In this document: positions 9,239-55,658 of the stretch, one piece after another
Layout: every line of letters starts with the position of its first letter
Numbering within the stretch: position 1 is the stretch's first letter
IMG/VR virus record: IMGVR_UViG_3300025003_000394
Source: an uncultured virus (IMG/VR IMGVR_UViG_3300025003_000394)
Lineage: Duplodnaviria > Heunggongvirae > Uroviricota > Caudoviricetes
DNA: 64,000 nucleotides
Direction: 5' to 3' (one strand)
Made by a program: the position numbers and the translations under genes
Notes under the pieces: generated by a model
Seen by the model: the letters and a program-made list of their open reading frames with translations, nothing else
Told to the model about the DNA's origin: nothing
The model's database searches: none

Positions 9239-10900
9239 ATGTGTTCAATTTTAGGTATTTTAGATATAAAAACAGATCCAGTTAAATTAAGAAGCTTGGC
9301 GCTTGAAATGTCAAAAAAATTACGTCATAGAGGTCCAGATTGGTCAGGAATTTATTCCACCAATAAAGCAATACTAGTCCATGAAAGGCTAGCAATAGTA
9401 GGCGTTAATGGCGGTGCTCAACCACTTTATAATCCAGAAAAAACGCATGTTCTCGCTGTTAATGGTGAAATTTACAACCATAAAGAGTTAAGAAAAGATT
9501 TAAAAGTAGATTTTGAATTTCAAACTGAATCTGATTGCGAGATTATATTAGGTCTATATAAGGAAAAAGGCGTAAACTTCCTTGATGATTTAAATGGTAT
9601 TTTTGCATTTTGTTTATATGATGAAGAAAAAGATCAATATTTAATTGGTCGAGATCATATAGGTATTATACCACTATACTACGGCTACGACAAATCAGGA
9701 AATAGATATGTGGCATCTGAGTTAAAAGCCTTAGTGGGTACCTGCAATGTTATTGAGGAATTTCCAGCAGGGCATTACTTGTGGAGTGGGGACGAAAAGC
9801 CGACCAAATATTATGCCAGAGATTGGGAGAATTATGAGAATGTAAAAGATAATACATCATCTATTCAAGAAATAAGAGAAGGTTTAGAGGCAGCAGTTCA
9901 TAGGCAATTAATGTGCGATGTGCCTTACGGAGTTTTGTTGTCAGGCGGTCTAGACTCTTCTGTTATTTCAGCGATTACCCAAAAGTTTGCTAAAAAAAGA
10001 ATAGAGGATAATGATCAAAGCGATGCTTGGTTTCCAAAATTACACTCTTTTTCGGTTGGTTTAGAAGGATCACCTGATTTAAAATATGCGCAGGAAGTTG
10101 CAGATGAAATAGGTACTATTCACCATCCAATTCACTTTAAGGTTCAAGAGGGTATTGATGCAATTTCTGAGGTTATTTATCATTTAGAAACCTATGACGT
10201 GACAACAATAAGGGCATCAACTCCAATGTATTTAATGTCAAGAAAAATAAAGGCAATGGGAATAAAAATGGTCTTATCAGGTGAAGGTGCAGATGAATTG
10301 TTTGGTGGTTATTTATATTTTCACAAAGCACCTAATGATAAAGAGTTTCATGAAGAATTATGTAGAAAAGTATCTAAGTTACATATGTTTGATTGTTTAC
10401 GTGCAAATAAATCAATGGCAGCTTGGGGAATAGAGGCTAGAGTGCCATTTTTGGATAAAGAATTTATGGATATTGCAATGAATGTTAATCCAAAGGACAA
10501 GGAGTGTAAGGATGGTAAGATGGAAAAAAATATACTTCGGGAAGCTTTTGAAGGATACTTACCTAGCAGTGTTTTATGGAGGCAAAAAGAGCAATTTAGT
10601 GACGGTGTAGGGTATAGTTGGATTGATTCATTAAAAGATTATACAAATAAGGAAGTTACAGACTTAATGTTTACTAATGCTAAATTTAGATTCCCAATAA
10701 ATACGCCTGAAACAAAGGAAGCTTATTTATATAGATCTATTTTTGAGACACACTTTCCAACAGATGCTGTTATTAAATGTGTTCCTCATGGTAAATCAGT
10801 AGCTTGTTCAACAGTTGAAGCTTTGGCTTGGGATGAGTCTTTTAATAATAATGCTGATCCTTCTGGTAGGTCAGTAAATGTGCATACTAGTAAATCATAA
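9239..10900 (+). CDS. asnB: Asparagine synthetase B (glutamine-hydrolysing)
   Basis: N-terminal Cys (MCSILG), RHRGPD, HERLAIV, NGEIYNH, LLSGGLDSS, SGEGADE, EARVPFLD; closely matches gammaproteobacterial AsnB. Confidence 0.97.
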   Translation: MCSILGILDIKTDPVKLRSLALEMSKKLRHRGPDWSGIYSTNKAILVHERLAIVGVNGGAQPLYNPEKTHVLAVNGEIYNHKELRKDLKVDFEFQTESDCEIILGLYKEKGVNFLDDLNGIFAFCLYDEEKDQYLIGRDHIGIIPLYYGYDKSGNRYVASELKALVGTCNVIEEFPAGHYLWSGDEKPTKYYARDWENYENVKDNTSSIQEIREGLEAAVHRQLMCDVPYGVLLSGGLDSSVISAITQKFAKKRIEDNDQSDAWFPKLHSFSVGLEGSPDLKYAQEVADEIGTIHHPIHFKVQEGIDAISEVIYHLETYDVTTIRASTPMYLMSRKIKAMGIKMVLSGEGADELFGGYLYFHKAPNDKEFHEELCRKVSKLHMFDCLRANKSMAAWGIEARVPFLDKEFMDIAMNVNPKDKECKDGKMEKNILREAFEGYLPSSVLWRQKEQFSDGVGYSWIDSLKDYTNKEVTDLMFTNAKFRFPINTPETKEAYLYRSIFETHFPTDAVIKCVPHGKSVACSTVEALAWDESFNNNADPSGRSVNVHTSKS

Positions 10901-12663: not shown

Positions 12664-13974
12664 CTAAATAAAGTCTTTCATGTTGTGTTTAGGTGAATCT
12701 TTGGGAATATAGGTTGTATGATGACGAGGCGTTAAAATCCAGTGCCAAAGTTTCCCTTTTTCAGGTTTAAAATAATCCCCATCGCCATCGGATAATACAA
12801 ATATGGCGTCAGGGTGTTTTGATTCAGATGTGAGTTTATTGATATGGTTATTGAGAATTCTAAAAGAAGTCCCACCAGAACCTCTTATTTTTCCTGATTT
12901 AATATCAATAGGGTATAAGTATGTGTCAAAGGAGTAGGCTTCGATATCAAATACTTCTTCTGGGATAGATTGTAGCATAGAAACAAATCGTTGTGCATGA
13001 CTAAAACAAGAGCCAGAAGCATCTAGGAAGAAAACGAGCTTATATTTTTGTTTTTCTGGAACAAGTGTTTCCCAATCTCCTTGGATCATAAGATCATCGG
13101 ATAAACAAGTGTGCTTCCTGTCACGTTGAATCCAAGAAGGTTTATTTACATAATGCATTTTTAAAATACTTTTTATATGATTTTGGACAATACTTTCCCA
13201 TTTTTTATTTTTTCTAACATTATTGATCGTAATCCTAATGTAACTACCAATAGGGATAGTGCCTGCACCACTTAATTTAGAGTCTGTAATCTCATTTTGC
13301 ATTTTATTAGAAAGTTCTATTTTTTCCTCATCTGAAATCTGATTATCAATAGTTTCTTTGAATATCTGGCTTGCCTCAGTAGAATATTCAGACATTTGGT
13401 CAATAAAATCTTGTAGATCTGGGTCTAAATCTTTGGTGTTGCAGTGTTGATCAACAGTTTCCTTGTCTTGATTAAAGTTATTTTGAATAAGTAAGTTATA
13501 ATAATATTTAAAAGAACCTAATTTATTAATATTTAAATCAGCAATTGTATTGAGATCAAAAAGAGTATCAACAAAACAAAGATTTTTCCAATTTTGAATA
13601 GTTTCTTTGTGGAAGCCGAATCCACTCACTAAAAGCTCGTTAATAACAATATCTTGTGCAATATTAACCAGTTCCTGATCGCTGCACTCCTGACCACGTT
13701 TTCCGTGATTTAAAACAACATGTAGGCACTCATGAGCAATAACAAAGAGTTTATTGTTGATATCAAGTGAATTCCAAAAATCTGGATTAATAATCATGTA
13801 AATGACATCACCTTGTCGATCAAATCCTACCGCAGCAGTTGAAATTTTAGTAGTAAAAATAGGTGTACCTATCTTCCAGAAAGTTTGAAAGATAGTGTGA
13901 TGTTGAGCAAGAAGGTTAGTTAATTCAATTTCTTCTTCATAGCTCATTTTAATTATTTGATGATTTTCTTGCAT
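12664..13974 (-). CDS. HExxH metallopeptidase-like + vWA domain protein (DUF2201-like)
   Basis: AHECLH, NIAQDIVIN; vWA DASGS, GSGGTSF, LSDG. Confidence 0.85.
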   Translation of the reverse strand: MQENHQIIKMSYEEEIELTNLLAQHHTIFQTFWKIGTPIFTTKISTAAVGFDRQGDVIYMIINPDFWNSLDINNKLFVIAHECLHVVLNHGKRGQECSDQELVNIAQDIVINELLVSGFGFHKETIQNWKNLCFVDTLFDLNTIADLNINKLGSFKYYYNLLIQNNFNQDKETVDQHCNTKDLDPDLQDFIDQMSEYSTEASQIFKETIDNQISDEEKIELSNKMQNEITDSKLSGAGTIPIGSYIRITINNVRKNKKWESIVQNHIKSILKMHYVNKPSWIQRDRKHTCLSDDLMIQGDWETLVPEKQKYKLVFFLDASGSCFSHAQRFVSMLQSIPEEVFDIEAYSFDTYLYPIDIKSGKIRGSGGTSFRILNNHINKLTSESKHPDAIFVLSDGDGDYFKPEKGKLWHWILTPRHHTTYIPKDSPKHNMKDFI

Positions 13975-15233
13975 TAAAATGCTCCATAAACTTTATGAAA
14001 ATCATATTCTGAAATAATAGGGATAGAAAGATTCTGAGCCTTAATTACTTTTGAAGATGGGCTTTTAACGTCATTCGCATTAATAATAAACTGAGTTTTT
14101 TTAGTGACAGTATTTGTAACGAATGCACCAATTCGTGATAGTAGTGTTTCGATATCACCCTGAGTGTTACCATTACTATAATTTAATGAGAATTTACCAG
14201 TAAGAACAACAGTTTTTCCTTGAAGGTTCAATGCGGCAGAGTTGCTTAACGAATAAATAAGCTCTTTAATTACTGCCTCAAAAGGTTGTGAGAATGTTGA
14301 TTCAACTTCTGTTTTAATTTCACTGGGGACGTTTTTGCAACTTCTAATTTCTTTTAGCCATTCAAGATCTTTTGTAATAACTTGATTCATTATGTAATCT
14401 TGTGGAATGTATTGAATAACCTTATCTAGTTCTTTTAGGATATAGGATTTGAATTTTGAGATATTACCTAAATTCTTAAAAAACAATGACTTTTCTTCTG
14501 GTAATAATGTTGCAAAGTTTTTCCATTCATCATCAAGTGAAACAGATTGAATACGCTGAATAAGATTGGAAATATTGCTTTGAATAGGGAGTACGTGTTT
14601 TAAGTCTCCACCAACCTGATAGATTTCAATAGAATTGTCAAGTAATCGTGGAGAAATAGAATACCGTAGATCTTCTGAAAGAGAAGTCCACCACTCAATA
14701 AATGGTTGTGAACTAAAACCATATTTATTTTTAAAATATTGTTTATCTAATTGGTATGGCATGTCAATTTTAATCGGGAAACGATCTAATTGTGCAGGAT
14801 CGATTTCTTCAACATCATAAGTGCCTTCTTCATTATGAGGGTTAATGGCAGCCCAAACAACTTTTAGGTTATTAAATTTACGTCCGTTGATTGACTTAAA
14901 TTGGATAAGTTCCATTACGGCATTTCTGACCTTAATTGGAGATCGGTTATACTCATCAAAGAAAATAGCCTCAACATTATCATCGGCAAAACGTGCTGGT
15001 GGAATAAGTTTTAATACATCAGTGCCATCTTCGCGAGTAACAGCCTTTGGAACACCAATGAGATCAACCCAAGCATCCATTGTGGATGCTGAAAAATAAA
15101 CCCAACGATCACCAAAGTTATTATTAAAAATAGTTTTAATAATTTCAGTTTTACCTGTTCCATGTCTGCCTTTAAGTAAAACATTGAAATTGTTTTTTGC
15201 ATAAAGGTTGAGTAGGTTCATATCTAAAAGCAT
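13974..15233 (-). CDS. MoxR-like AAA+ ATPase with C-terminal BRCT domain
   Basis: Walker A GRHGTGKT, Walker B FFDEYNR, AAINP, DPAQLDRF; tail LQGKTVVLTGKF..VTKKT..SSKVIKAQNLSIPIISE is BRCT-like; coupled to the vWA gene. Confidence 0.85.
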   Translation of the reverse strand: MLLDMNLLNLYAKNNFNVLLKGRHGTGKTEIIKTIFNNNFGDRWVYFSASTMDAWVDLIGVPKAVTREDGTDVLKLIPPARFADDNVEAIFFDEYNRSPIKVRNAVMELIQFKSINGRKFNNLKVVWAAINPHNEEGTYDVEEIDPAQLDRFPIKIDMPYQLDKQYFKNKYGFSSQPFIEWWTSLSEDLRYSISPRLLDNSIEIYQVGGDLKHVLPIQSNISNLIQRIQSVSLDDEWKNFATLLPEEKSLFFKNLGNISKFKSYILKELDKVIQYIPQDYIMNQVITKDLEWLKEIRSCKNVPSEIKTEVESTFSQPFEAVIKELIYSLSNSAALNLQGKTVVLTGKFSLNYSNGNTQGDIETLLSRIGAFVTNTVTKKTQFIINANDVKSPSSKVIKAQNLSIPIISEYDFHKVYGAF

Positions 15234-15708: not shown

Positions 15709-16146
15709 ATGAGTAAAACCATGAGTGAGAGACTAGCGGAAGCATTGGCTAAAATGGACGAACCTGAATTTATAGAGAAAAGGAAAGCTTATTTTAAAGA
15801 AGAAGAAAGGAAGCAAAAATTATCTATTGATTTTTTTGAAACCTTAGAATTTAAAAAAGTATTTAACAAAATTATTGAAATGGACAATAATAGTATATCA
15901 AATCATGATGTTGATTATTCTGAGGATAATGCATTAACAAGGGATGAGTTTTACAAAATACACGGCTGTGTATTTTTAGTGAAAAGAGACGAATCTAAAG
16001 ATGTAACTGATGATTTCGAAGAAGTAGTGATTAATTATAGAGGTGTATTATTTGGAATGTTATTTGGACAAGGAACACTAAGTTATATAAGTAAAACAAG
16101 TGAAATAAGTAAATTTTTGATTCAAGATAAACTTGATAAATTTTAA
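15709..16146 (+). CDS. Hypothetical protein family member 1 of 3, KLDKF tail
   Basis: Shared FFET.EF.K.FN, F.KIH, Y.G..FG, YI.KT motifs. Confidence 0.7.
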   Translation: MSKTMSERLAEALAKMDEPEFIEKRKAYFKEEERKQKLSIDFFETLEFKKVFNKIIEMDNNSISNHDVDYSEDNALTRDEFYKIHGCVFLVKRDESKDVTDDFEEVVINYRGVLFGMLFGQGTLSYISKTSEISKFLIQDKLDKF

Positions 16147-16162
16147 TAAATAGGATAAAAAT

Positions 16163-16621
16163 ATGTATGTAGTAGATTCTTTAAAATCAAAAAAAATAAA
16201 TAATGACTACATTAATATAAGAGACGTAAATATATTATTAAATAATAAAAATGAAGAATATTTTAAGATAGCAAAAGATGCTGCGTTCTTTGAAACAGAA
16301 GAGTTTAAAAAAACATTTAATGATTTAAAAAATTTAGACACAGATTATATATCAGAAATGTATTTTAGAGGAAAATCAAAAGTAGGAGAAATAACTAAAT
16401 ATAAGTTCTTTAAAATACATGATAGTATTTTTGCAGCAAATCGTAAAGATGTGATTTGTAGTTATTTTAAATCATTAAATGGAGATAAATACATTAAGAA
16501 AACTATAATATATAAAGGCTTTGAATTTGGGTATATAAAAGGAGATCTACCTACTACGTATATTAGAAAAACAAAGGATTTTAATAAAATTTTACTGCAA
16601 GAAAAAATATCCTTATTTTAA
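16163..16621 (+). CDS. Hypothetical protein family member 2 of 3, KISLF tail
   Basis: Same motifs as neighbours. Confidence 0.7.
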   Translation: MYVVDSLKSKKINNDYINIRDVNILLNNKNEEYFKIAKDAAFFETEEFKKTFNDLKNLDTDYISEMYFRGKSKVGEITKYKFFKIHDSIFAANRKDVICSYFKSLNGDKYIKKTIIYKGFEFGYIKGDLPTTYIRKTKDFNKILLQEKISLF

Positions 16622-16659
16622 TCTTAATTTTATAAAAACAATGAGTAGAGGAATTTAAA

Positions 16660-17175
16660 GTGTCAAAAAAAACCAACTCAAGCAACATAGATTTTGAATC
16701 ACTTTCTCAGTCAATGAGACGTATTAAAAAACATATAGAAAGTAATGAATTTCATAATAATATTTTAAAAGAAATTGAAGATAATGACAATAAATTACTT
16801 GAAGATATTAAATTTTTTGAAACAAAAGAATTTTATAAAATATTTAATAAAATAAAGAACATGGAGAAGGATTATTTGTCAGACATAAAGTTTGGGTATG
16901 ATGCAGGTTTAATCTTCAATGAAGATATTAATTCAGAATGTTTATTGGCTAGTGATTTCTATAAAATTCATGATAGTGTTTGCGCTGTAAAACAAGACGA
17001 ATTAATCACAAATAAGGATAAAATGTTAAAGGGGTACCCTTATTTAAGAATTAAAGTAGTATATCGAGGACTGGATTTTGGTCGAAATGAAGGTCATACA
17101 CCTATAAGATATATAAGGAAAACAAAGAATTTTAAGCAAATAATGTTGCAAGAGAAGTTGGGTAAGTTTTTGTAA
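16660..17175 (+). CDS. Hypothetical protein family member 3 of 3, KLGKFL tail
   Basis: Same motifs; GTG start with GAGG RBS. Confidence 0.7.
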   Translation: MSKKTNSSNIDFESLSQSMRRIKKHIESNEFHNNILKEIEDNDNKLLEDIKFFETKEFYKIFNKIKNMEKDYLSDIKFGYDAGLIFNEDINSECLLASDFYKIHDSVCAVKQDELITNKDKMLKGYPYLRIKVVYRGLDFGRNEGHTPIRYIRKTKNFKQIMLQEKLGKFL

Positions 17176-19395: not shown

Positions 19396-20121
19396 TTATT
19401 GGAATTGACTTATTTTTTCTTGTACATCAACTTTTATAAGATCACTATATAGTTCTGGATAATCTTGCCTTAATGTATTTTTTACACAGGTTTCGTTCCA
19501 AAAAAGTTTTATCGTTTCTTGGCAATTTAAAGATTTTGCTAATATAATGGCTTGATTATTATTGATGTTGGCATTAAATATTTTGCTATTAATAATTATT
19601 TCTAGCATATCGATATGATTATTTGAAAAAAAATCTTTATTTTTTAATACTAAAAGAAAAGGATTGAAGTATTCACTGTATGTAAAATCCTTGCTTAGTA
19701 AAAGTTGAATAGATTGCTTACAACCTATTCCACATGCTGAAATAAAAAAGGCTGTTCCATTAGTCGGATAATTTAAAAACTTAAATAACACATTAATAGA
19801 GTTAATACTTCTAGATCTTAAAGCTGACATTAATGCTGAATGAATGTTTAATGTAGTCTGGAAGTGTGGTTCTTTTAGTAATAAAGTTAATATTTCAGAA
19901 TAATCAATTCTTGCAGCTAATGACAATAATATTTGATAATGAAGGGTGGCTATGAATTTTTGTTTAAAATAAAGATTAATAAAATCAATATTATTATTTT
20001 TGATGGCTTGGGAAAGGCAATAAGTATGTAGAGAAGGAAGATCTTTTATAAGTTCTAACACTGTTAAGTGCTTGCTGTTTTTTAAAGCAATAAGGATGGC
20101 TTCTTTCAATTTGTCTTCCAT
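19396..20121 (-). CDS. Ankyrin-like repeat protein
   Basis: Close paralog of 20220..20939 (YP.NGT, FTY...FNPF, FWNE.CVK.TL). Confidence 0.7.
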   Translation of the reverse strand: MEDKLKEAILIALKNSKHLTVLELIKDLPSLHTYCLSQAIKNNNIDFINLYFKQKFIATLHYQILLSLAARIDYSEILTLLLKEPHFQTTLNIHSALMSALRSRSINSINVLFKFLNYPTNGTAFFISACGIGCKQSIQLLLSKDFTYSEYFNPFLLVLKNKDFFSNNHIDMLEIIINSKIFNANINNNQAIILAKSLNCQETIKLFWNETCVKNTLRQDYPELYSDLIKVDVQEKISQFQ

Positions 20122-20219
20122 TGTTTTTTTTCCAAGATTAAGTTGCTTTAATTTAATAATTCATTATATCAAAATAAGCATTAAATGTAAATAAAAATAA
20201 TAGATTTTAAAGAAAAAAA

Positions 20220-20939
20220 TTATAAAAACTGATTTATTTTACGCTGTATATCTAGTTTTATAAAACATCTATATAGTTCTGGACAATCGTTCATTAATGT
20301 ACTTTTTACGCAGGCTTCATTCCAGAACATTTTTATCACATCTTGATTATTAAAGAACTGTGCGCTCTTAAATGCTTCATTGTTATTCATACTGAGATTA
20401 AAAACATTGAAGAGATGATGTAAAACTTCAGTATATTTATAATAGAAAAAATATTCATTATGTAAAAGCATGTAAAAAGGATTAAAATCTTTATCATATG
20501 TAAAATTTCTACTCAATAAAATATTAATAGAATCGGTATATTTAGTAGAGCAGGCTTGACGTAGTAGAGAAGTCCCATTAAAAGGGTATTCCACAAAACC
20601 TAATAATACATTAAGGCAAGCAATATTATTAGAGTCAATAGCCGTTATTAATGCTGCTTGGAAATTTTCTTTAGTATTAAATAAAGTTTGATTTAATAAT
20701 AATGTTAAAATTTCTGGGCTTGAAGTTCTTGCAGAGAATGATAATAGGTAATAATAATCAAGATCTACTGCAAGATTTTGCTTTAAATAGAAATCAATAA
20801 AGCCAATATTTTTTACGCCAATAGCATATCGAAAAAAGAAAGAGTGGAGTGACACTGAATCATTAATAAGGCTTAATACTAATGGATAATTATTATCTTT
20901 TAAGGCAACAATAATATCGTCTTTTAATTTTTCGTTCAT
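20220..20939 (-). CDS. Ankyrin-like repeat protein
   Basis: Paralog of 19396..20121; upstream region also duplicated. Confidence 0.7.
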   Translation of the reverse strand: MNEKLKDDIIVALKDNNYPLVLSLINDSVSLHSFFFRYAIGVKNIGFIDFYLKQNLAVDLDYYYLLSFSARTSSPEILTLLLNQTLFNTKENFQAALITAIDSNNIACLNVLLGFVEYPFNGTSLLRQACSTKYTDSINILLSRNFTYDKDFNPFYMLLHNEYFFYYKYTEVLHHLFNVFNLSMNNNEAFKSAQFFNNQDVIKMFWNEACVKSTLMNDCPELYRCFIKLDIQRKINQFL

Positions 20940-22299: not shown

Positions 22300-22328
22300 T
22301 TGACAAATAAAATAAAATGTGAAATAAT
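22300..22328 (+). promoter_or_regulatory. Sigma70-type promoter P1 of attenuator module 1
   Basis: TTGACA, 17 nt, AATAAT preceded by TGA. Confidence 0.6.
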
Positions 22329-22371
22329 ATGTAATATTAAAGTTAAAAACCAATAAAAAAGGAATAAAAAA

Positions 22372-22419
22372 ATGAAAAATAATGTAGCACGATTATTACT
22401 GGCACTCTTATTAGATTAA
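22372..22419 (+). CDS. Leu-rich leader peptide 1 (MKNNVARLLLALLLD)
   Basis: AAGGA RBS; 6 Leu codons (TTA TTA CTG, CTC TTA TTA); followed by hairpin and terminator. Confidence 0.8.
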   Translation: MKNNVARLLLALLLD

Positions 22420-22513
22420 TTCCCTGACTCCTTTTTGGAAGACTGGGAAATAGTCCAGTCTTCTTGTGCAGAAATATCGCCCTTGAAGATAATATTCTTT
22501 AAGGGTTTTTTTT
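22420..22513 (+). terminator. Attenuator 1: upstream hairpin plus intrinsic terminator
   Basis: GAAGACTGG/CCAGTCTTC hairpin (22438-22463); CCCTTGAAGA/TCTTTAAGGG + T8 (22480-22513). Confidence 0.8.
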
Positions 22514-22589
22514 GCATTTTAATTAATGAGGGGATACTGCAAACTAGACATAAGTTATTGAAAAATAAGAAAAAAAATAAAAAAAAGTA

Positions 22590-22618
22590 TTGACAAGTAA
22601 GGAAATGTATGAGATAGT
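22590..22618 (+). promoter_or_regulatory. Sigma70-type promoter P2 of attenuator module 2
   Basis: A-rich UP-like tract, TTGACA, 17 nt, GATAGT preceded by TGA. Confidence 0.6.
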
Positions 22619-22665
22619 GTTTAGTAGAGAAATTAATAAATTACCCCATAAAGGAAATAAATAAA

Positions 22666-22707
22666 ATGAATAATAAGAGCCTCACAAAATTATTACTATT
22701 GACATAA
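22666..22707 (+). CDS. Leu-rich leader peptide 2 (MNNKSLTKLLLLT)
   Basis: AAGGA RBS; CTC then tandem TTA TTA CTA TTG just before the stop. Confidence 0.85.
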   Translation: MNNKSLTKLLLLT

Positions 22708-22793
22708 TATCTAGCCTACAAAAGATGGCTAGATATAAATCTAGTCTTCTTGAAATTAAAAACCTCTTGAAGAATATTTAAGAGGTTTTTTTT
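22708..22793 (+). terminator. Attenuator 2: mutually exclusive hairpins plus intrinsic terminator just upstream of the first tRNA
   Basis: TATCTAGCC(22708-16)/GGCTAGATA(22727-35) competes with GGCTAGAT/ATCTAGTC(22739-46); terminator CCTCTTGAA/TTTAAGAGG + T8. Confidence 0.85.
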
Positions 22794-22805
22794 ATATAAA
22801 ATAAT

Positions 22806-22886
22806 GCGGGTGTACGCAAATTGGTAAAGCGACAAGACTTAAAATCTTGTGATTGTTTGAGAGTTCGAATCTCTCTGCCCGTACCA
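22806..22886 (+). tRNA. tRNA-Leu(TAA)
   Basis: Cloverleaf; CAAGA-CTTAAAA-TCTTG anticodon arm, GAGAG-TTCGAAT-CTCTC T arm, A73, encoded CCA. Confidence 0.9.
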
Positions 22887-22922
22887 AATTTAGTTTGAGA
22901 AGTAATGAATATTATAGATAAT

Positions 22923-23003
22923 GCGGGTGTACGCAAATTGGTAAAGCGACAAGACTTAAAATCTTGTGATTGTTTGAGAGTTCGAATCTCTCTGCCCGTA
23001 CCA
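22923..23003 (+). tRNA. tRNA-Leu(TAA)
   Basis: Identical to copy 1. Confidence 0.9.
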
Positions 23004-23039
23004 AATTTAGTTTGAGAAGTGAAGAATATTGTAAATAAT

Positions 23040-23120
23040 GCGGGTGTACGCAAATTGGTAAAGCGGCAATGCTAAGAACATTGTGATTGTTTGAGAGTTC
23101 GATTCTCTCTTCCCGTACCA
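23040..23120 (+). tRNA. tRNA-Leu(AAG)
   Basis: CAATG-CTAAGAA-CATTG anticodon arm; ACCA end. Confidence 0.85.
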
Positions 23121-23156
23121 AATTTAGTTTGAGAAGTAATGAATGTTATAGATAAT

Positions 23157-23237
23157 GCGGGTGTACGCAAATTGGCAAAGCGGCAAGACTTAGGATCTTG
23201 TGATTGTTTGAGAGTTCGAATCTCTCTTCCCGTACCA
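23157..23237 (+). tRNA. tRNA-Leu(TAG)
   Basis: CAAGA-CTTAGGA-TCTTG anticodon arm with G37; ACCA end. Confidence 0.9.
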
Positions 23238-23273
23238 AATTTAGTTTGAGAAGTAATGAATATTATAGATAAT

Positions 23274-23354
23274 GCGGGTGTACGCAAATTGGCAAAGCGG
23301 CAAGACTTAGGATCTTGTGATTGTTTGAGAGTTCGAATCTCTCTTCCCGTACCA
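23274..23354 (+). tRNA. tRNA-Leu(TAG)
   Basis: Identical to copy 4. Confidence 0.9.
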
Positions 23355-23390
23355 AATTTAGTTTGAGAAGTGAAGAATATTGTAAATAAT

Positions 23391-23471
23391 GCGGGTGTAC
23401 GCAAATTGGTAAAGCGGCAATGCTCAAAACATTGTGATTGTTTGAGAGTTCGATTCTCTCTGCCCGTACCA
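23391..23471 (+). tRNA. tRNA-Leu(CAA)
   Basis: CAATG-CTCAAAA-CATTG anticodon arm; ACCA end. Confidence 0.9.
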
Positions 23472-23535: not shown

Positions 23536-23922
23536 TTGGATTTATGTTTAAATGAAATGAATATACAAGAGATTTCATTTGATTTATTAGTTAAGGCATT
23601 AGAAGACGAAAACATTTTTTGTACATTGATAAATTACTACTACAACAATAACTGCCCGTTATTATTAACTAAAGATAATAGTCAGACTCTTGTACGGTTA
23701 TTTAAAATGTTGGTTAAGAAAAATAATGATAAAATGTGGCAAAAAACACTGGGTGTAAAGTATATCAGTCGTTTAATTCCACAGGCTTGTTTGGTCGATT
23801 TATATAAAAAGGGAAATATGAAAATATTAGATTTTGCATTAAGCAAAAAAGAGGTTAGAGAATCAGTATTGAGAAACAATACTAAGGAGTTAGCTCCATA
23901 TCTTAAATTAAAAGATTTTTAA
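23536..23922 (+). CDS. Hypothetical protein, KLKDF tail
   Basis: ORF ending with the family tail; likely start ATG at 23557. Confidence 0.55.
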   Translation: MDLCLNEMNIQEISFDLLVKALEDENIFCTLINYYYNNNCPLLLTKDNSQTLVRLFKMLVKKNNDKMWQKTLGVKYISRLIPQACLVDLYKKGNMKILDFALSKKEVRESVLRNNTKELAPYLKLKDF

Positions 23923-24013: not shown

Positions 24014-24331
24014 ATGAAAAACAAAATGTTATTAGGTGCTACAGTGATCGCAGTAATGTCTATGATGGGTTCAGCAACGGCTGAAGATTTGGTTAAGCCA
24101 GCATTATTTGGCCTATGTGAGTCTTGTCATGGTGTAGGTGCTAAATCGACAATGGATGGTTATCCAACGTTAGCAGGGCAAAATAAACTTTACTTAATTA
24201 ATAGTATTAACGCTTATAAAAATGGAGAGCGAAGTGGTGGGCTTTCTGCATTAATGATCCCAATGTCAAAAATGATGGCAGATGATGCAAGTGTAGAAGA
24301 AATGGCGACCTATCTCAATAGCTTAAAATAG
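24014..24331 (+). CDS. Periplasmic class I cytochrome c (c553/c4-like)
   Basis: Signal peptide, CESCH haem motif, YPTLAGQ..YL, distal Met; GAGG RBS. Confidence 0.92.
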   Translation: MKNKMLLGATVIAVMSMMGSATAEDLVKPALFGLCESCHGVGAKSTMDGYPTLAGQNKLYLINSINAYKNGERSGGLSALMIPMSKMMADDASVEEMATYLNSLK

Positions 24332-24604
24332 ATTTATATGTTCAGGTAAATATTAAAAGCCCACTTAAGACTATATAGTAAAAACTATATATATCAGTGA
24401 GTGAGTGAGTTCTAACCCTGCATTAGCGGGGCTTTTTAATGTAAGTCGATTATACACAGTGTGTTTATTGGATATGTATAATCAATCAAGCGAAAATTTG
24501 TTATTTTGAAATTGCACTTGAACAGATGTTTTGCAGGATAAAGAGCAATAACGGCAATACATAATGCATAGAATACACTGTATATCCGATTGTTCTCATG
24601 CCAT

Positions 24605-24688: not shown

Positions 24689-25414
24689 TTAAAATAAATT
24701 AATTTTGTGTGACATTACATATTTGTAGTATTTTTCTTTAAATACATTATTTGAGACAGAGGTAAAACAAGGGTAATTAATAATAATAAAATTATTGTGA
24801 TCATTATTTATTAATAATTCGAGAAAGTCAAACTTATCAAAAATTGGGTAATAAAAACTCCTACTTTTTTTAATTGCATTATTTTGCAAATTAAAAGTAG
24901 ATTCAAAAACAGAAAAATCAAAATTATCAAAACAACTTAGTGCTTTAAAGTTTTTGTGTATAAGACTAATTTGTTTGTTTAATTTTTTTTCGTCTAAATG
25001 AAAACCATCAGTTAAAATTTTGGATAAAATAACTGCAATTGTCTTGCCTGAAATTGGGTAATGTTGATTGATGATTTCAATGTTTTTTAGGAGAACATTA
25101 TCAGATTTCTCTAATTTATCAAAAATAACTTCTTTATCAATAACAAGATCTTTATCGTTTAAAATAAGATCAATAATATATGTGTAGCGAGAATTTAATG
25201 CAAAACGAAATAAATCATAGATATAGTCAGTCATATAATTTTTATCATTTATATGTTTTTTAGAGAAATTATACATAAAGAAAAATGATTCTTTTCTATG
25301 ACGATATGCTCCTTTTTGAGTAATTCTACTTAACTGGCCTAAATCAAGCGTCTCAATTTTAATAAGAAGTGCAGAAAGATCATTAGCAGAAATAATTTTG
25401 TTAGCGCTTGACAT
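24689..25414 (-). CDS. Hypothetical protein, KINLF tail
   Basis: Paralog of 25485..26213 (YRHRKESF, PCFT). Confidence 0.7.
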   Translation of the reverse strand: MSSANKIISANDLSALLIKIETLDLGQLSRITQKGAYRHRKESFFFMYNFSKKHINDKNYMTDYIYDLFRFALNSRYTYIIDLILNDKDLVIDKEVIFDKLEKSDNVLLKNIEIINQHYPISGKTIAVILSKILTDGFHLDEKKLNKQISLIHKNFKALSCFDNFDFSVFESTFNLQNNAIKKSRSFYYPIFDKFDFLELLINNDHNNFIIINYPCFTSVSNNVFKEKYYKYVMSHKINLF

Positions 25415-25484
25415 AGAGTTCTTATTGTCCTTGTTAGTAATAGGTATATTATAATATCATGAAAAAGAAAACAAATCAACTAAT

Positions 25485-26213
25485 TTAAAATGAATGAATT
25501 TTTTGAGAAATAACATATTGTAAGTACTGTGCTTTGTATTTTTCAGATCCCAAAATAAATGTAAAGCAAGGGAAATTATTAGTGATGAAATGACTGAATT
25601 TATTTTTAATTAAAAAATCAAGAAAATTAAGTTTTGTATAAATTAATTTAGAGAATCCATAAGTTTGCATCTTAGTAAATTCAGTATGAAATATAGATTC
25701 AAAATTAGAAATATCGAAGTTGGGAAGTGAGGTAATTAATTGTCCAATTTGATATACATCCTTAATATCTTTCATTAGTTCCTCATTATTTACCGCATAT
25801 ACATGACCCAGTAATGTTTTTGATAAGATAAGACTAAGAAATCGAGTTGGTAAAGTGAATCGCTGATTGATATACCTAATGACTCGAAGGTATGTAAATC
25901 TTGATTTTTTTAGTGAAATAAATGCATATTGTTCAATAAAGGTAAAATCAGTGTCATTTAAAATAAGTTCAATAATATATAAATGGTTTTTGTTAACTGC
26001 AAAATCAAATAACATGGCGATATAATTTTCTATATAATTATTTTCATTTTTGTATTTTTTTGAAAATTCATAAATAAAGTGAAAAGACTCTTTTCTGTGA
26101 CGATAAACGCATTTCTGACTGATATTCAAAAGTTCGATTAGACTCATAGTTTGGATTTTACTAAGAATTTCTGGAAAATTATTGTCTGAAATCATCTTAT
26201 TGATATTAGTCAT
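25485..26213 (-). CDS. Hypothetical protein, KIHSF tail
   Basis: Paralog of 24689..25414. Confidence 0.7.
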   Translation of the reverse strand: MTNINKMISDNNFPEILSKIQTMSLIELLNISQKCVYRHRKESFHFIYEFSKKYKNENNYIENYIAMLFDFAVNKNHLYIIELILNDTDFTFIEQYAFISLKKSRFTYLRVIRYINQRFTLPTRFLSLILSKTLLGHVYAVNNEELMKDIKDVYQIGQLITSLPNFDISNFESIFHTEFTKMQTYGFSKLIYTKLNFLDFLIKNKFSHFITNNFPCFTFILGSEKYKAQYLQYVISQKIHSF

Positions 26214-26346: not shown

Positions 26347-28395
26347 ATGCTAAATGCTTTATTATTTATTTTATCATTTTTTTATTTAATAATGGAATAC
26401 CTATTTAATGTAAGTTTAGTCAGCATGGTAGGGCAAGATACAATTCAAATATATCGAGATGTTGATTATATTGGGAGATTAATTTCATCATTTGGTGCCT
26501 CATTGCTATGCTTAAGGTTATTTACTGGAGTAAAGCTGACAAGAAGTATGAAAATTATAGTTACCGCTTTACTGCCTATTGTTTTTACAGGCACATATCT
26601 TATTCAAAAAGAATTATTGGATTATATTACTGAAGTAACACCTATGGAAAGTAAGCGTGGGCAAGCATATACCTATATTTATAAAAAGGGTGTAGCTAAT
26701 GGATCTCTAAAATTTGAAGGCACTCCAAAAGAGAAATCTCTCGAAGAAGAACATGTTTTTAACTCATCTATAATTTATTGGGGTGTTGGTTATCCAAAAT
26801 TTATTGAAGAAACAAAATCTCTTTCAGAAAAAGAAATATTAAATAACACCAGTAAAGTATTCGATAGAGATTTTAATAAAAATATGAAGTATTATAAAAT
26901 ACCTTATATTGCTGCAGATTTACAAATTCAATCACTTTATAATTCTTATAAATCTCATCATGAGAGAATTCAAGAGTCAAGAAAGTATGCTGATAGAGAA
27001 ATTGATAAGGCTTGGAGTGAGAAAATAAAATTTGAGGAAAAATTATTAAGAAAATATGACAGTATTCGAAAAAGAACTCATGCAAAAGCGGCACAATCAT
27101 TAAGAAGTGGGATGTTTAGGAAATCTGTTGCTAATGATATAATGAGTAACTATTATTTTTTAGCAGGATGTAGCTCTCAGCACTGCTATGAGAATTCTAT
27201 AAAAATGTTAAAAAGATATAATGAAGCCTTTAAAAAAGGTAACGATTTGCAGAGGGCAAAGGGGTTAAAGGCATATGATTATGATTATACGGTTGAGAAA
27301 AACTGTAGTTTATCAATGGATAAAGGAAGGAATAAATTTATTAATAAAAATCTTCCAGAACACGAAGATTATAATATTGATAGAAAATCCTCATTTAATA
27401 AATTTTCGAAATACAATACAATAAAATGCAGTGTCGATTTTAGACCTGTGCAAAGTTTAATTATTGATAGAATGTATGAACGATTAACAGAAAGTACTTA
27501 TATTGTTGATTTTAGCGCAAGAAACAAGGCTGAGTTTGCTAAATCACAAGCTTCTTCTGATTCTATAAGTTACGCTATTTTTGAACAATCAGGTGTAAAA
27601 ATGCCAAAAAACTGGAATAGAAATAATAAAGAAGCATTTTATGAAGCATTTTATGAAGCATTTAAGCAGAATAAACTAGGTGATCAATATGGAATTCTTA
27701 AAGAAAAGTTGAAAGAAAAATTTGGCTTTGACGTCCCATTAAACCTAACTAAGAAACAATTTTATTCACTTCCTAAAATGAGAGAATTAATTAAAGATAT
27801 TGCAGGTGTTTTTTACATAGATGATTATGAGGCAAAAGGGTATAATAATTTTGAAATACAAAAATGGAAAACACTTTATAGGGAAAAAATGTATAATGGT
27901 TTTAAAATGGAGATGCAATTAGATGAGAACTTTAAAGAGCATTTTAAAAATCATTTAGGTAGTTCATTGGCAAGTTATTTTATTGAAGAAAAAAATAAAA
28001 ATAATGAGTATGTAGATAAAATTTTTAAAGCAACCGTTGTTCCTATTATTGCTATTTTGTTCTCGTTATTTTTTGGAATAATTAATTTTGCATTTATTTT
28101 AAAAGACATAGTGTGTTTTATATTAAAAGTTGTGGATAGAAAGAAGCAAATGTTTGTTGGAGCAGTGTTGTCGGCATTACTTTTGACATCTCCTTTATTG
28201 ATTGGCAATAGTTATACTGATAGTGACTATTTTAATGAGGTGATTTACCCTTCAATGAGTTCTGATAGTAAAGTGGGTGCAATAGTATATAAATGGTTCT
28301 TAAATACGGAAATAATAGTGTATTCAACAACAGGCTTATACTTTGTAGAACCAAAGTTTTTTGTAAGTGACAATGAGTCAATGTTGAGTAATTAA
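26347..28395 (+). CDS. Large membrane protein (N- and C-terminal TM segments, large soluble middle)
   Basis: 682 aa with hydrophobic clusters at both ends; GGAG RBS. Confidence 0.7.
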   Translation: MLNALLFILSFFYLIMEYLFNVSLVSMVGQDTIQIYRDVDYIGRLISSFGASLLCLRLFTGVKLTRSMKIIVTALLPIVFTGTYLIQKELLDYITEVTPMESKRGQAYTYIYKKGVANGSLKFEGTPKEKSLEEEHVFNSSIIYWGVGYPKFIEETKSLSEKEILNNTSKVFDRDFNKNMKYYKIPYIAADLQIQSLYNSYKSHHERIQESRKYADREIDKAWSEKIKFEEKLLRKYDSIRKRTHAKAAQSLRSGMFRKSVANDIMSNYYFLAGCSSQHCYENSIKMLKRYNEAFKKGNDLQRAKGLKAYDYDYTVEKNCSLSMDKGRNKFINKNLPEHEDYNIDRKSSFNKFSKYNTIKCSVDFRPVQSLIIDRMYERLTESTYIVDFSARNKAEFAKSQASSDSISYAIFEQSGVKMPKNWNRNNKEAFYEAFYEAFKQNKLGDQYGILKEKLKEKFGFDVPLNLTKKQFYSLPKMRELIKDIAGVFYIDDYEAKGYNNFEIQKWKTLYREKMYNGFKMEMQLDENFKEHFKNHLGSSLASYFIEEKNKNNEYVDKIFKATVVPIIAILFSLFFGIINFAFILKDIVCFILKVVDRKKQMFVGAVLSALLLTSPLLIGNSYTDSDYFNEVIYPSMSSDSKVGAIVYKWFLNTEIIVYSTTGLYFVEPKFFVSDNESMLSN

Positions 28396-49664: not shown

Positions 49665-51542
49665 CTAAAGTATGAAGTTTTTTTCAAAGTAGTAAATAGT
49701 TAATATTAACATGATAATTGGATCATATTTTGCTTGTAAAGCTGGATTATTACTGTTAATTAATTTTACTAACATCGTTTTTATTTTTTCATTGTCAAAA
49801 AAATGGTGATTAATCATTGATTGACTATTTAGAATATCAAATAACATCACTTTTACATTATTTGTTTGTTGTCCACCACTCCAGCTTAAGAGCGGTGGTG
49901 CAATAAAAGGGTGTTTTTGTTTTTGATAAATTAATGGGGTAATGTCATTCTTGAATGTTTCCTTAAGAATGTATTTTTCAACACTGTGTTCATTCATTTT
50001 GAAATGAGTTGGTAGCGTTCTTGCCACTTCATACACTCTTCGATCAAGAAATGGAACTCTCCCTTCAATTGTATGTGCCATCTCCATTTTATCCCCAAGC
50101 CCTACTAAAATGTAGTTGCCTAGACATATTTTGCTCCATAAGTAGCTTGAAGTGTAAACATTGTCCATTTTAGGAATATTAAGTGGTTTAAGAATATCTT
50201 TAATTGGATCAAACATATTACTAACATAATCAGTCTTTAATACTTCGTTTTGAAGTTTTAGTCCCATTGAGTATTTTGCCTCAAGAAATTTAGGTACAAA
50301 ACCAAGTTCCTGTTGAATTAATGCTGTACTTAGGCTTTCACTGTCAGGAGTTTGAAGTCCAGATAAATACTCGTTATTTAGAATATTTTCATTAGTATTG
50401 TTTAAGTCAAGCTTAAAATGTGGGTACCCCAAAAACAATTCATCAGCGCCTTCGCCACTTAATGAGACCTTAATTCCAGCTTCTTTCATTGCTTTAAAGA
50501 GTAAAAACTTTGCTGGAAGGTGACTATTAATTGAGACTTCTTCACTATGGAATGTTGCATTCTCAATATTATTAAGCATATCAGACTCTGTAACATAAAC
50601 AGGATTGAAATTACCATTATACATTTTGCACATTTCTTCTGCAACTAGGCATTCATCGTAATTGCCACCACTTGCAAAACTAAGTGTAAAGGCATCCAGT
50701 TTTTCACTACTAACTTGATTTGCCAGTCCCCAAATAACGGAAGAATCAATGCCACCACTAAGTGTTATTGCTTTTTTACGGTCAACACTAATTCGATCTT
50801 TTACAGATCTTAATAATGCCTCACGTAATGACTCTTTTGCATCGTCAAAGGTAATGGAATTGTCAGGTTGATAATGAATGTCCCAGTATTTAGTTTCCGT
50901 TATTGACATTGTGTGAAGATCAATAACAAGGTATGAGCCTGCCTGAACTTGCTTGACGTTATTAAGTAATGTGCTATCAGAGCTGTGATATTGCATAGTT
51001 AGTACTGAGTTTAATGCATTATCTGACCAAGCCATTTTTCCTAGTGCTAGAAATGATTTCTGCTCCGAAGAAAAATAAATACTATCATCTTTTTGATAGT
51101 AATATAGAGGGTTTATGCCAAATCTATCTCTAAGAGCAATAATTTTGTGATTTTTTTTATCATAAATTATTGCTGCAAACTCACCATTAAGTTCATTAAA
51201 AAAATCATCTGACAAACCAAACTTTTGATAAAGTGGGATAATAATCTCACTATCAGTTTCTGTATTAAATTGGTATCCTTGTTGAGAGAATGTATTGCGG
51301 ATTTTTTCATATCCATAAAATTCTCCATTAACTATAGCTGCAATATCCTTTTTGCTTGAGTATAAAGGTTGAGTTCCTAGATCTCCAACAATAGAAAGGC
51401 GGTTGTGACCAAGTGCAACACCATTGTCAAAGAAAAATCCATTACCATCTTGTCCTCTATGCGCTATTTTATTAAGCATATCTGTTAATAATGCTGGTGA
51501 AAATTGTTTATTTTTAGAGAAAGCAGCTACAATACCACACAT
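49665..51542 (-). CDS. Second asparagine-synthase-family amidotransferase (divergent)
   Basis: MCGIV, HRGQD, HNRLSIV, NGEFY, RDRFGINPLYY, LSGGIDSS, SGEGADE, EGRVPFLD. Confidence 0.92.
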   Translation of the reverse strand: MCGIVAAFSKNKQFSPALLTDMLNKIAHRGQDGNGFFFDNGVALGHNRLSIVGDLGTQPLYSSKKDIAAIVNGEFYGYEKIRNTFSQQGYQFNTETDSEIIIPLYQKFGLSDDFFNELNGEFAAIIYDKKNHKIIALRDRFGINPLYYYQKDDSIYFSSEQKSFLALGKMAWSDNALNSVLTMQYHSSDSTLLNNVKQVQAGSYLVIDLHTMSITETKYWDIHYQPDNSITFDDAKESLREALLRSVKDRISVDRKKAITLSGGIDSSVIWGLANQVSSEKLDAFTLSFASGGNYDECLVAEEMCKMYNGNFNPVYVTESDMLNNIENATFHSEEVSINSHLPAKFLLFKAMKEAGIKVSLSGEGADELFLGYPHFKLDLNNTNENILNNEYLSGLQTPDSESLSTALIQQELGFVPKFLEAKYSMGLKLQNEVLKTDYVSNMFDPIKDILKPLNIPKMDNVYTSSYLWSKICLGNYILVGLGDKMEMAHTIEGRVPFLDRRVYEVARTLPTHFKMNEHSVEKYILKETFKNDITPLIYQKQKHPFIAPPLLSWSGGQQTNNVKVMLFDILNSQSMINHHFFDNEKIKTMLVKLINSNNPALQAKYDPIIMLILTIYYFEKNFIL

Positions 51543-52623: not shown

Positions 52624-53460
52624 ATGGAAATACTTAAAAACATGGATAATATAAGAACGTTAATTAAGAGTCTGCTAATTAATAAGGATAGTGGGAGTAA
52701 AATATTTTATTCTTCAATAATGTTGGCGTCTTTTATGTTTACATTACTTACGTTACTTACATTGTACTTTATTAACAATGGCGAGGTTGATGCAAATGGC
52801 TTAGAAATTAATGTTGTATTGCCTATCGTTACTGGATTTCCTATGTTTATAGTTTACTTTCTAGTATTTTCTTTTCTTTGGGTATCTATATCGAAGGTAT
52901 TATATAGGAAAAGAACTGCATTGTTGGCTAAATTATTTAATAAATCTTTTTTAACAAATAAGAGTGAGTTAAAAATAAGAAATGAAATAATTAATTTAAA
53001 AATTAATGATAAAACACAAGCTTTATTATCTGAAATAAATTTGGAAATATATGACGAGGGGGAAGATGCTGTTTTAAGAGAATTAATTGTAAAAATAATA
53101 GAAGGTGAATTAAATAGTACTAATGTTTTGTCTATAGATAAGTATATAAATATATTTAATAGTAAGTATGAATCTCAAAATATATATTCATTAACTATTG
53201 ACAATCAAATTAATTTTTTAGATATATTGCTAAATAAGATAAGTGAAGAAGATTTTAATGCTAAAAAATCGGTTTTGGCTAAAAATTTGTGTTCAATGTC
53301 AGAAGATTATAGTTTGAAAAATAAAATTATAGATAGAATTGAAAGAAAAGAGGAAGAGTTAAGTAAGGAAGATTTAGTAAGAGAGAGGTTATTAAAATTA
53401 GAAAGTAAAAATAATAAAACAGGAATACTGATAGGTAAGACAAAAGTGAAAACAATATAA
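52624..53460 (+). CDS. Two-TM membrane protein, family A, KVKTI tail
   Basis: Paralog of 53534..54427 (NQI..LDILL.KIS.EDF..KS.LA). Confidence 0.7.
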   Translation: MEILKNMDNIRTLIKSLLINKDSGSKIFYSSIMLASFMFTLLTLLTLYFINNGEVDANGLEINVVLPIVTGFPMFIVYFLVFSFLWVSISKVLYRKRTALLAKLFNKSFLTNKSELKIRNEIINLKINDKTQALLSEINLEIYDEGEDAVLRELIVKIIEGELNSTNVLSIDKYINIFNSKYESQNIYSLTIDNQINFLDILLNKISEEDFNAKKSVLAKNLCSMSEDYSLKNKIIDRIERKEEELSKEDLVRERLLKLESKNNKTGILIGKTKVKTI

Positions 53461-53533
53461 TAAAACCAGTATTAGTTATGATTTATTATAGCTAAAAATA
53501 AGAAAATAAATATTAAATAAGGTAGAAAGTGCA

Positions 53534-54427
<894 letters not shown>

Positions 54428-55526: not shown

Positions 55527-55658
55527 TATATTAGGTTAATTAATAATTAAAAAAAAATAATATAAATTCCACAAAGTATAATGGTTAAATAAGGTGCTTT
55601 ATCTAAAGTTGTTGGACATTAATGTGAAGTTATAAAAGCATTTGATATAGGAGATATA

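Follow-up and report, generated by a model that had tools for sequence, protein, structure and literature searches.

Here, we describe an arrangement in which transfer RNA (tRNA) genes may stand under the control of translated leaders. It lies in a stretch of 64,000 nucleotides (nt) of DNA from an uncultured virus (IMG/VR record IMGVR_UViG_3300025003_000394), referred to below as the window, and consists of two tandem, paralogous leader units followed by an array of six tRNA genes for leucine (Leu). Each unit has a promoter-like site, a Shine-Dalgarno (SD) sequence, a short open reading frame (sORF) with a run of Leu codons, alternative hairpins and an intrinsic terminator; these parts, their order and their conservation between the paralogues can be read directly from the DNA. 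We propose that the two units sense how well Leu codons are decoded and thereby set read-through into the tRNA-Leu genes that the element carries, a proposal to which we would give about an even chance of being right.

Two Paralogous Leader Units

Unit 2 stands next to the array, and all features of both units lie on the plus strand. Promoter-like sites were scored as matches, out of 12, to the sigma-70-type -35/-10 consensus, a measure that weak promoters may escape. The site of unit 2 (P2; 22590..22618) reads TTGACA-17-GATAGT with a TG and matches at 10 of 12 positions. An SD sequence, AAGGA (22651..22655), is found 10 nt 5′ of the ATG of leader ORF 2 (22666..22707), which was seen in the sequence and in the sORF scan described below; it encodes MNNKSLTKLLLLT before its stop codon, with the Leu codons CTC and, further on, TTA TTA CTA TTG. 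Folding of the region after the ORF predicts two helices, namely helix 1:2 (AUAUCUAGCC / GGCUAGAUAU, 22707-16/22727-36; 10 bp, -14.2 kcal/mol), whose segment 1 shares the last base of the stop codon, and helix 2:3 (22722-34/22739-51; 12 bp plus one U-U mismatch, -12.7 kcal/mol). The two are mutually exclusive, and helix 2:3 sequesters UCUUC at 22745-49. Terminator 2 (22758..22793; -15.3 kcal/mol) follows, with a 14-bp stem (22758-71/22777-90) and eight T residues at 22786-93, and it contains GAAGA (22769-73), the proposed antiterminator partner of UCUUC. The distance from the T run to the first tRNA gene is 12 nt. With a fold z of -6.0, the post-ORF region of unit 2 was matched in stability by 0 of 200 dinucleotide shuffles. 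An initial annotation of this region had listed a promoter, a ribosome-binding site, a Leu leader, mutually exclusive hairpins, a terminator and six tRNA-Leu genes, and every one of them was confirmed. An A5 tract also lies 5′ of the stem of terminator 2 and is able to pair with the T tract. Since the minus strand reads the same hairpin followed by TTTTTAATTT, terminator 2 could stop transcription both ways.

A second, paralogous unit, overlooked in the initial annotation, is located 290 nt upstream (unit 1; 22300-22513). Its promoter-like site (P1; 22300..22328) is TTGACA-17-AATAAT with a TG before the -10 box and matches the consensus at 11 of 12 positions. The SD sequence is again AAGGA (22359..22363), here 8 nt 5′ of the ATG, and leader ORF 1 (22372..22419), likewise recognized in the sequence and by the sORF scan, encodes MKNNVARLLLALLLD before its stop, with the Leu codons TTA TTA CTG and CTC TTA TTA. 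The resulting LLLALLL resembles the FFFAFFF of Escherichia coli PheL, which is also a peptide of 15 residues. Immediately 3′ of the stop codon begins a weak predicted helix 1:2 (22420..22449), in which UUCCC (22420-24) pairs with GGGAA (22445-49) at -9.4 kcal/mol. Hairpin 2:3 (GGAAGACUGGG / UCCAGUCUUCU, 22437-47/22454-64; 11 bp, -16.0 kcal/mol) sequesters GUCUUC, and terminator 1 (22479..22513; -15.7 kcal/mol) has an 11-bp stem (22479-89/22496-506) and eight T residues at 22506-13. A possible antiterminator would pair GUCUUC (22458-63) with GAAGAU (22485-90) at -8.6 kcal/mol. Again, 0 of 200 dinucleotide shuffles were as stable as the post-ORF region (fold z = -5.05).

The two units align over 243 columns with a mean column identity of 77%. 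Kept between them are the -35 box, the SD sequence, the ATG, the ATTATTAC Leu core and the position of the stop codon relative to the next helix, together with two blocks of 10 nt (AGTCTTCTTG) and 8 nt (CTTGAAGA). Because the ORFs differ by a 9-nt indel, the leader reading frame is preserved. The 2:3 hairpin has undergone one double change from G-C to A-U and three one-sided changes that still pair, and has lost one pair, while the pairing of the terminator survives a paired insertion. As they come from two sequences (n = 2), these paired changes are no more than suggestive of constraint. No further copies of the leader units were found within the window.

Leaders of this kind are infrequent in the window. 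Both strands (128 kb in all) were scanned for sORFs of 6-40 codons that start with ATG, carry an SD sequence and contain at least three consecutive Leu codons. Five qualified (four distinct stops), and two of these are the two leaders, on the tRNA strand. Leu makes up 6 of 14 residues in leader 1 (p = 0.002) and 5 of 12 in leader 2 (p = 0.006), given a Leu frequency of 0.106 in the ORFs of the window. The 11 leader Leu codons (TTA six times, CTC twice, and CTG, CTA and TTG once each) comprise five of the six Leu codons. Five distinct codons among 11 are unremarkable by themselves (p = 0.27); the rare CTC and CTG account for 3 of the 11 vs. 6.5% of Leu codons in window ORFs (p = 0.03). Terminator-like sites are also concentrated here, with three between 21800 and 24200 vs. 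0.6 ± 0.8 in shuffled sequences.

Predicted Choice Between Hairpins

In order to model the effect of ribosome position, a ribosome footprint of 30 nt was masked and the nascent RNA of unit 2 was folded as far as 22776, in the terminator loop. With the ribosome stalled with its A site at 22690 or 22693, the predicted fold contained helix 1:2 together with the UCUUC/GAAGA pairing (3:4). With the ribosome at the stop codon, helix 2:3 formed and the terminator arm was left free. A stall at the earlier CTC codon also leaves segment 1 free, by arithmetic. Thus, the choice between 1:2 and 2:3 according to ribosome position, which the initial annotation had put forward, was reproduced in these masked folds. 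We also considered that the leader or a hairpin might clamp the start of tRNA 1. This idea was rejected, since the leader:tRNA 1 duplex (-21.1 kcal/mol) has the energy of those formed by 200 shuffled leaders (-21.6 ± 3.9 kcal/mol) and nothing in the pairing is specific.

The tRNA-Leu Array

ARAGORN found exactly six tRNA genes in the 64 kb, all of them tRNA-Leu genes on the plus strand, between 22806 and 23471 and with a period of 117 nt. The Rfam tRNA model scores them at 44.2-54.8 bits (gathering score 29). In order, they are tRNA-Leu(UAA) copy 1 (22806..22886; 81 nt including an encoded CCA), tRNA-Leu(UAA) copy 2 (22923..23003), tRNA-Leu(AAG) (23040..23120), tRNA-Leu(UAG) copy 1 (23157..23237), tRNA-Leu(UAG) copy 2 (23274..23354) and tRNA-Leu(CAA) (23391..23471). 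The six repeat units are 94% identical. A triplet super-repeat is apparent in the spacers and the body variants, with copies 1-3 corresponding to copies 4-6. The spacer variants group copy 2 with copy 5 and place copies 1, 3 and 4 together. An anticodon-stem variant with two compensating changes is shared by copies 3 (AAG) and 6 (CAA), as is a change in the T loop; a U-U mismatch is present in the acceptor stem of copies 3-5. All anticodon differences among the copies stay within the Leu family. The double compensatory changes in the anticodon stem and the Leu-only anticodon changes indicate that the tRNA genes are under selection, and the pattern fits a history of tandem duplication followed by anticodon change under functional selection.

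Leucyl-tRNA synthetase (LeuRS) ignores the anticodon, and the anticodon variation of the array fits such a synthetase. In addition, the genes have an A directly before the encoded CCA, that is, discriminator A73, which is a LeuRS identity element. In form, the tRNAs are not of class II, since the variable region is only ~9 nt (UGAUUGUUU) and the whole gene 81 nt including CCA; the long variable arm (a stem-loop of >10 nt) expected of a bacterial class II tRNA-Leu is absent from the array genes. Leu codon usage in the window is TTA 0.50, CTT 0.20, TTG 0.12, CTA 0.12, CTC 0.04 and CTG 0.02, and the numbers of gene copies (two each for UAA and UAG, one each for AAG and CAA) follow it.

The short-armed type is not confined to this element. 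The D-arm of the array (20 nt, identical) occurs at 118 places in 115 metagenome loci, of which 100 were called as tRNA-Leu, five as tRNA-Gln and one as tRNA-Phe, while 12 were not called as tRNAs. The 100 tRNA-Leu genes span all six anticodons, with AAG (A34) in 17, and 103 of the 106 called tRNAs are 73-82 nt long. Most of these loci are dense, phage-like tRNA clusters, and at least five tRNAs are present in 67 of the 115. Twelve IMG/VR contigs and cultured Vibrio phages also carry the same short-armed tRNA-Leu type.

Two ORFs follow the array on the plus strand, one of 121 amino acids with helical-repeat or ankyrin-like leads only (23557-23922) and one that is cytochrome c-like (24014-24331). 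Both are probably in the same transcription unit as the tRNAs, with the next terminator-like site (24416..24431, plus strand) as its likely end. Most of the ORFs neighbouring the array are left unnamed by Pfam and PHROGs.

Promoter-Like Sites and RNA-Library Contigs

In the stretch from terminator 2 to tRNA 1, only promoter-like sites with 9 of 12 matches were detected, and none of them is strong. In agreement with the initial annotation, the leader matches the array, which ARAGORN calls as Leu only. The 9/12 sites 3′ of leader ORF 2 are at 22750-22778, embedded in terminator 2, and at 22778-22805. All five tRNA spacers contain TTGAGA-16-GATAAT (10/12), with the -10 box ending 1 nt before the next tRNA.

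Four aquifer metatranscriptome runs cover parts of the region, as contigs only. Contigs of run X21 extend from 22366 to 22535, that is, from leader 1 through terminator 1, and from 22506 to 22628, into P2. A contig of run X24 (22560-22766) begins 5′ of P2, and run X23 yielded one 166-nt contig that stops at 22513, where the T run of terminator 1 also ends. Pieces with tRNA, spacer and tRNA are also included in the RNA-library contigs, none of which bridges 22766-22801. In one X21 contig, 22628 is followed by 30 letters of different sequence and then by 22366, and the two ends of the contig overlap, which points to a strain in which a unit of ~293 nt with a P2-type promoter and a leader 1-type ORF is tandemly repeated. 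The leader variant of X21 has GTA in place of GCA (Ala to Val) between the Leu triplets and keeps all six Leu codons. Leader copy number and sequence thus appear to differ between strains.

Matched Leaders and Relatives Elsewhere

A comparable leader was found in LR756511.1, a 595-kb uncultured phage. One of its tRNA blocks, of class II, has the order Ser (four genes), Leu, Tyr (two) and Leu (four), and upstream of it are a promoter-like site, an SD sequence, a 27-codon sORF encoding VHTFSASLRLSSYSLSSLLYSNVRRGT and a strong terminator, at about 437,500-437,800 (locus L117, reverse strand, 1700-1985). Leu, Ser or Tyr account for 15 of the 26 residues of this peptide (p ~5e-5 if the background is taken as 0.21), and its codons include all six for Ser and four for Leu. 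A search with the LR756511.1 leader found only LR756511.1 itself. The phage was rejected as a relative of the element, as it shares only 2 of 61 window ORFs. Compared with LR756511.1, the window stands out by two paralogous units in tandem, leaders for Leu alone, tRNA-Leu genes with a short variable region and a particularly weak antiterminator. The design with a matched leader would thus seem to recur in unrelated phages, and from the counts given below it is far from universal.

Relatives of the array were also sought directly. In viral_contigs, no relatives of the flanking ORFs turned up, and a 26-nt tRNA pattern had 0 matches. None of the 115 D-arm loci of metagenome_contigs holds a related array, the best blastn matches being 88% identical across 66 nt and 79% across 96-97 nt, and the phage collection returned single tRNA matches only, at 77-79% identity. 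Leader candidates at the 12 IMG/VR loci with the same tRNA type were unconvincing and were set aside. One sORF rich in Leu, Ser and Tyr in an IMG/VR contig was not counted because it is 1.3 kb from the next Ser tRNAs.

The Carrier Element

The window has a GC content of 23-33% and contains at least eight ankyrin-repeat ORFs as well as many ORFs without any family. Fifteen pairs of paralogous ORFs were found, many of them adjacent (e.g., 15709-17175, with three copies, 19396-20939, 24689-26213, 52624-54427 and 54690-56501), so the element as a whole seems prone to tandem duplication. SD motifs precede 42 of 60 ORFs vs. 11.6% of random windows. Together with the sigma-70-like promoters and the intrinsic terminators, they mark the element as prokaryotic. 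The same three features ruled out a giant virus, an origin that the 27% GC, the ankyrin ORFs and the ORFans had brought to mind.

Several signs nevertheless favour a phage, among them the tRNA type of the array, which is the one seen in phage tRNA clusters. PHROGs matched 6 of 50 ORFs. Among the matches is a NadR-like enzyme (E = 3.9e-122) that is 51-55% identical to those of T5-like phages, and no structural phage gene was named in the window at E up to 0.1. Next to a DUF2201-type metallopeptidase lies a MoxR-type AAA ATPase with a fused BRCT domain (12664-15233, minus strand). No other gene pair is shared with LR756511.1, where the two have 40% and 33% identity and where the only full-length phage match of the pair (33%) is located. 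Two asparagine synthase genes are present (9239-10900 and 49665-51542). The first, with 34% GC, is 78% identical to AsnB of Pseudoalteromonas, the closest among species genomes, and has the look of a gene taken up long ago from a gammaproteobacterium, its synonymous sites since recoded. The match hints at a donor or host among the gammaproteobacteria and supports nothing further. A metagenome contig of 402 kb carries an AsnB with 89% identity. For the ORF at 26347-28395, no homologue besides itself was found. DNA of the element was detected in 20 aquifer metagenome runs (0.91-0.95 of sampled words). Overall, the element is probably a large phage or another mobile element of a gammaproteobacterium, with no structural phage gene in the window. 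It also carries a HEARO RNA (Rfam RF02033, associated with HNH/IscB-type ORFs) at 61811-62058 on the plus strand (108 bits, cut-off 83), and no IscB-like ORF was recognized beside it among four neighbouring ORFs (Pfam, E up to 1).

Discussion

We infer that both leader sORFs are translated, that RNA polymerase terminates or reads through behind them, that hairpin 2:3 is linked to the terminator and that the whole responds to the supply of tRNA. Under this scheme, most transcripts from P1 and P2 would stop at the terminators and yield leader RNAs of ~170 nt, and the six tRNA-Leu genes, probably with the two ORFs after them, would be made by read-through. During fast decoding of Leu, the ribosome would reach the stop codon and cover segment 1, so that 2:3 would form and leave the terminator unhindered. 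When Leu-tRNA-Leu is scarce, an early stall in the Leu run would allow 1:2 to form and would free segment 3 with its UCUUC, which could then interfere with GAAGA in the 5′ arm of the terminator and raise read-through. The outcome would be a feedback in which slow decoding of the element's Leu codons leads to more tRNA-Leu; more tRNA would not relieve leucine starvation as such. The scheme can be extended to a closed-loop controller of tRNA supply that also serves as a counter-defence sensor. Here, the leaders would sample several classes of Leu codons, depletion or cleavage of host tRNA-Leu would cause stalling and turn on the element's own tRNA-Leu genes, these tRNAs, with no long variable arm, might escape nucleases directed at class II tRNAs, and duplication of leaders and tRNAs would tune the gain between strains. 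We regard this extension as a long shot, and the rescue from tRNA-cleaving defence raised in the initial annotation as speculation.

A number of observations weigh against control of read-through by the leaders. In the masked folds of unit 2, a late stall (A site at 22696 or 22699) folds like the stop-codon state, with 2:3. Of the four Leu codons in a row, only the first and the second leave segment 1 free when the ribosome stalls on them, as does, by arithmetic, the CTC before them. The TCTTC/GAAGA antiterminator proposed in the initial annotation did form in the early-stall nascent fold, but it is worth just -4.8 kcal/mol and touches the top three stem pairs and two loop bases of a terminator of -15.3 kcal/mol, which keeps a pair probability of 0.98-1.0 in the free, stalled and stop-codon states when full-length RNAs of unit 2 are folded. 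Unit 1 fares little differently, with -8.6 kcal/mol for the antiterminator vs. -15.7 kcal/mol for the terminator, and its helix 1:2 (-9.4 kcal/mol), which overlaps 2:3 by 3 nt, is far weaker than the latter (-16.0 kcal/mol). Judging from these models, the sequence spells out the sensing part of the device clearly, whereas its coupling to termination is weak and could work only through kinetics.

Further points of this kind come from outside the folds. The promoter-like sites in terminator 2 and in the spacers could drive the tRNAs independently. The RNA-library contigs are ambiguous, because their depth is 2-6 on single-copy DNA, opposite-strand neighbours are covered alike and carry-over of DNA is possible, and we draw no conclusion about expression from them. 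No homologue was found against which conservation could be judged; for a pattern of the attenuator core, viral_contigs and genome_contigs each gave 0 matches. In LR756511.1, the 27 other tRNA blocks that were tested lack a matched leader (lowest p = 0.073). The initial annotation had suggested looking for amino-acid-matched leaders at other tRNA clusters and, apart from the one case in LR756511.1, the metagenome loci held no excess of them. Among 137 tRNA clusters in the 115 loci, Leu-run sORFs numbered 15 vs. 26 on the reverse complement; no SD-bearing Leu-run sORF stood before a Leu-first cluster. Likewise, sORFs rich in Leu, Ser and Tyr came to 1 of 480 on the tRNA strand vs. 1 of 263 antisense.

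It is conceivable, though unlikely, that both units are self-contained short transcription units that always end at their strong terminators and produce small RNAs or Leu-rich micropeptides, with the array transcribed by unregulated leak through terminator 2 or from weak promoters embedded in the terminator and spacers and the Leu runs being incidental hydrophobic sequence. The dominance of the terminator in all modelled states and the weakness of the antiterminator are in keeping with such units, as are the promoter-like sites at 22750-22778 (9/12) and in the five spacers (10/12). The X23 contig ends at 22513, as a terminated leader RNA would, and since duplication is rife in the element (15 paralogous ORF pairs), a duplicated unit needs no regulatory purpose. 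However, a Leu-run sORF is unlikely to stand beside a Leu-only array by coincidence when there are four distinct ones in 128 kb, and the stop codon abuts the alternative hairpins in both paralogues. Transcripts from the spacer promoters, starting ~7 nt 3′ of the -10 box, would begin inside a tRNA, and the matched leader of LR756511.1 argues that the pairing of leader and array is a matter of design. Peptides of 13 and 15 residues are also short for known membrane peptides.

The terminators could instead be timing devices that hold back early transcription from the strong promoters until a phage or host antitermination factor or a modified RNA polymerase lets it proceed into the tRNA genes and the two ORFs, the leader ORFs having no sensing role. 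Phages classically separate delayed genes from an early promoter by a terminator (lambda N and Q), the structures give no strong switch by RNA alone, and RNA-library contigs run through terminator 1 and begin 5′ of P2. Nevertheless, we consider this explanation quite improbable, given that no antiterminator protein or known RNA element was recognized with Pfam, PHROGs or Rfam and that it leaves the SD sequences, ATG codons, Leu runs and in-frame indel conserved between the units without a reason. Finally, translation of the leaders might gauge Leu decoding and yet act through an output other than the 3:4 pairing, e.g., stability or processing of the precursor or coupling of the ribosome to RNA polymerase. 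Such an output would spare the well-supported sensing parts and dispense with the antiterminator, which is the weakest link. In view of the pairing between leader and tRNA 1, which is no more specific than in shuffled leaders, and of stop codons that are ~50-60 nt from the terminators and thus too far away for a direct steric effect, we think it very unlikely.

If the leader units do control read-through, they resemble the attenuators of amino-acid operons (leuL of leuABCD, pheL, hisL, trpL, ilvL) in having a promoter, an SD sequence, a run of codons for a single amino acid, alternative hairpins and an intrinsic terminator. Unlike those attenuators, their targets are tRNA-Leu genes instead of biosynthetic enzymes, they comprise five segments, of which a stalled ribosome must leave segment 1 free, and their antiterminator is much weaker than the terminator. 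A captured leuL or T-box was rejected as the origin of the units, without support from Rfam. Among 21 Rfam matches at E up to 10 between 21800 and 24200, neither Leu_leader nor a T-box appeared, and His_leader (22.2 bits; cut-off 49), Phe_leader (20.6; 55) and PyrR (28.5; 54) stayed below their cut-offs. At gathering thresholds, Rfam recognized the tRNAs and the HEARO RNA in the whole window and nothing in the leaders. In E. coli, the pheM-pheST attenuator precedes synthetase genes. As with pheM-pheST and with synthetase T-boxes, the supply of charged tRNA would here control a component of decoding; those systems, by contrast, govern synthetases and not tRNA genes, and T-boxes bind the tRNA directly.

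The mgtCBR leader of Salmonella is an example of tandem attenuators, with two short ORFs before one operon (PMC3641672). The present units share with it the two leader ORFs in series and differ in that they are paralogous and that each has its own promoter and terminator. For the tRNA clusters of phages, the proposed roles include codon compensation and evasion of tRNA-targeting defences (PMC10264068). Like such clusters, the array belongs to an AT-rich, phage-like element and its tRNAs fit the element's own codon usage; unlike them, it consists of a single isotype that arose by tandem duplication and lies behind leader units. A search of the full-text literature, from which subscription journals are mostly absent, found no published leader-peptide attenuator before tRNA genes.

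To our knowledge, leader-peptide attenuation is established for amino-acid biosynthesis and a few synthetase genes, and not for tRNA genes. Control of the array by its leaders would therefore apply a known kind of mechanism to a new class of targets, with parts that are compact, at about 500 nt. The array itself is an example of tRNA genes that evolve through tandem duplication while their anticodon changes stay inside a single amino-acid family. If our proposal is correct, a phage-like element measures the speed at which its own codons are decoded and sets its output of tRNA to match. This would explain how phage tRNA arrays are regulated and would provide a direct readout of tRNA supply during infection, including infection under tRNA-targeting defence.

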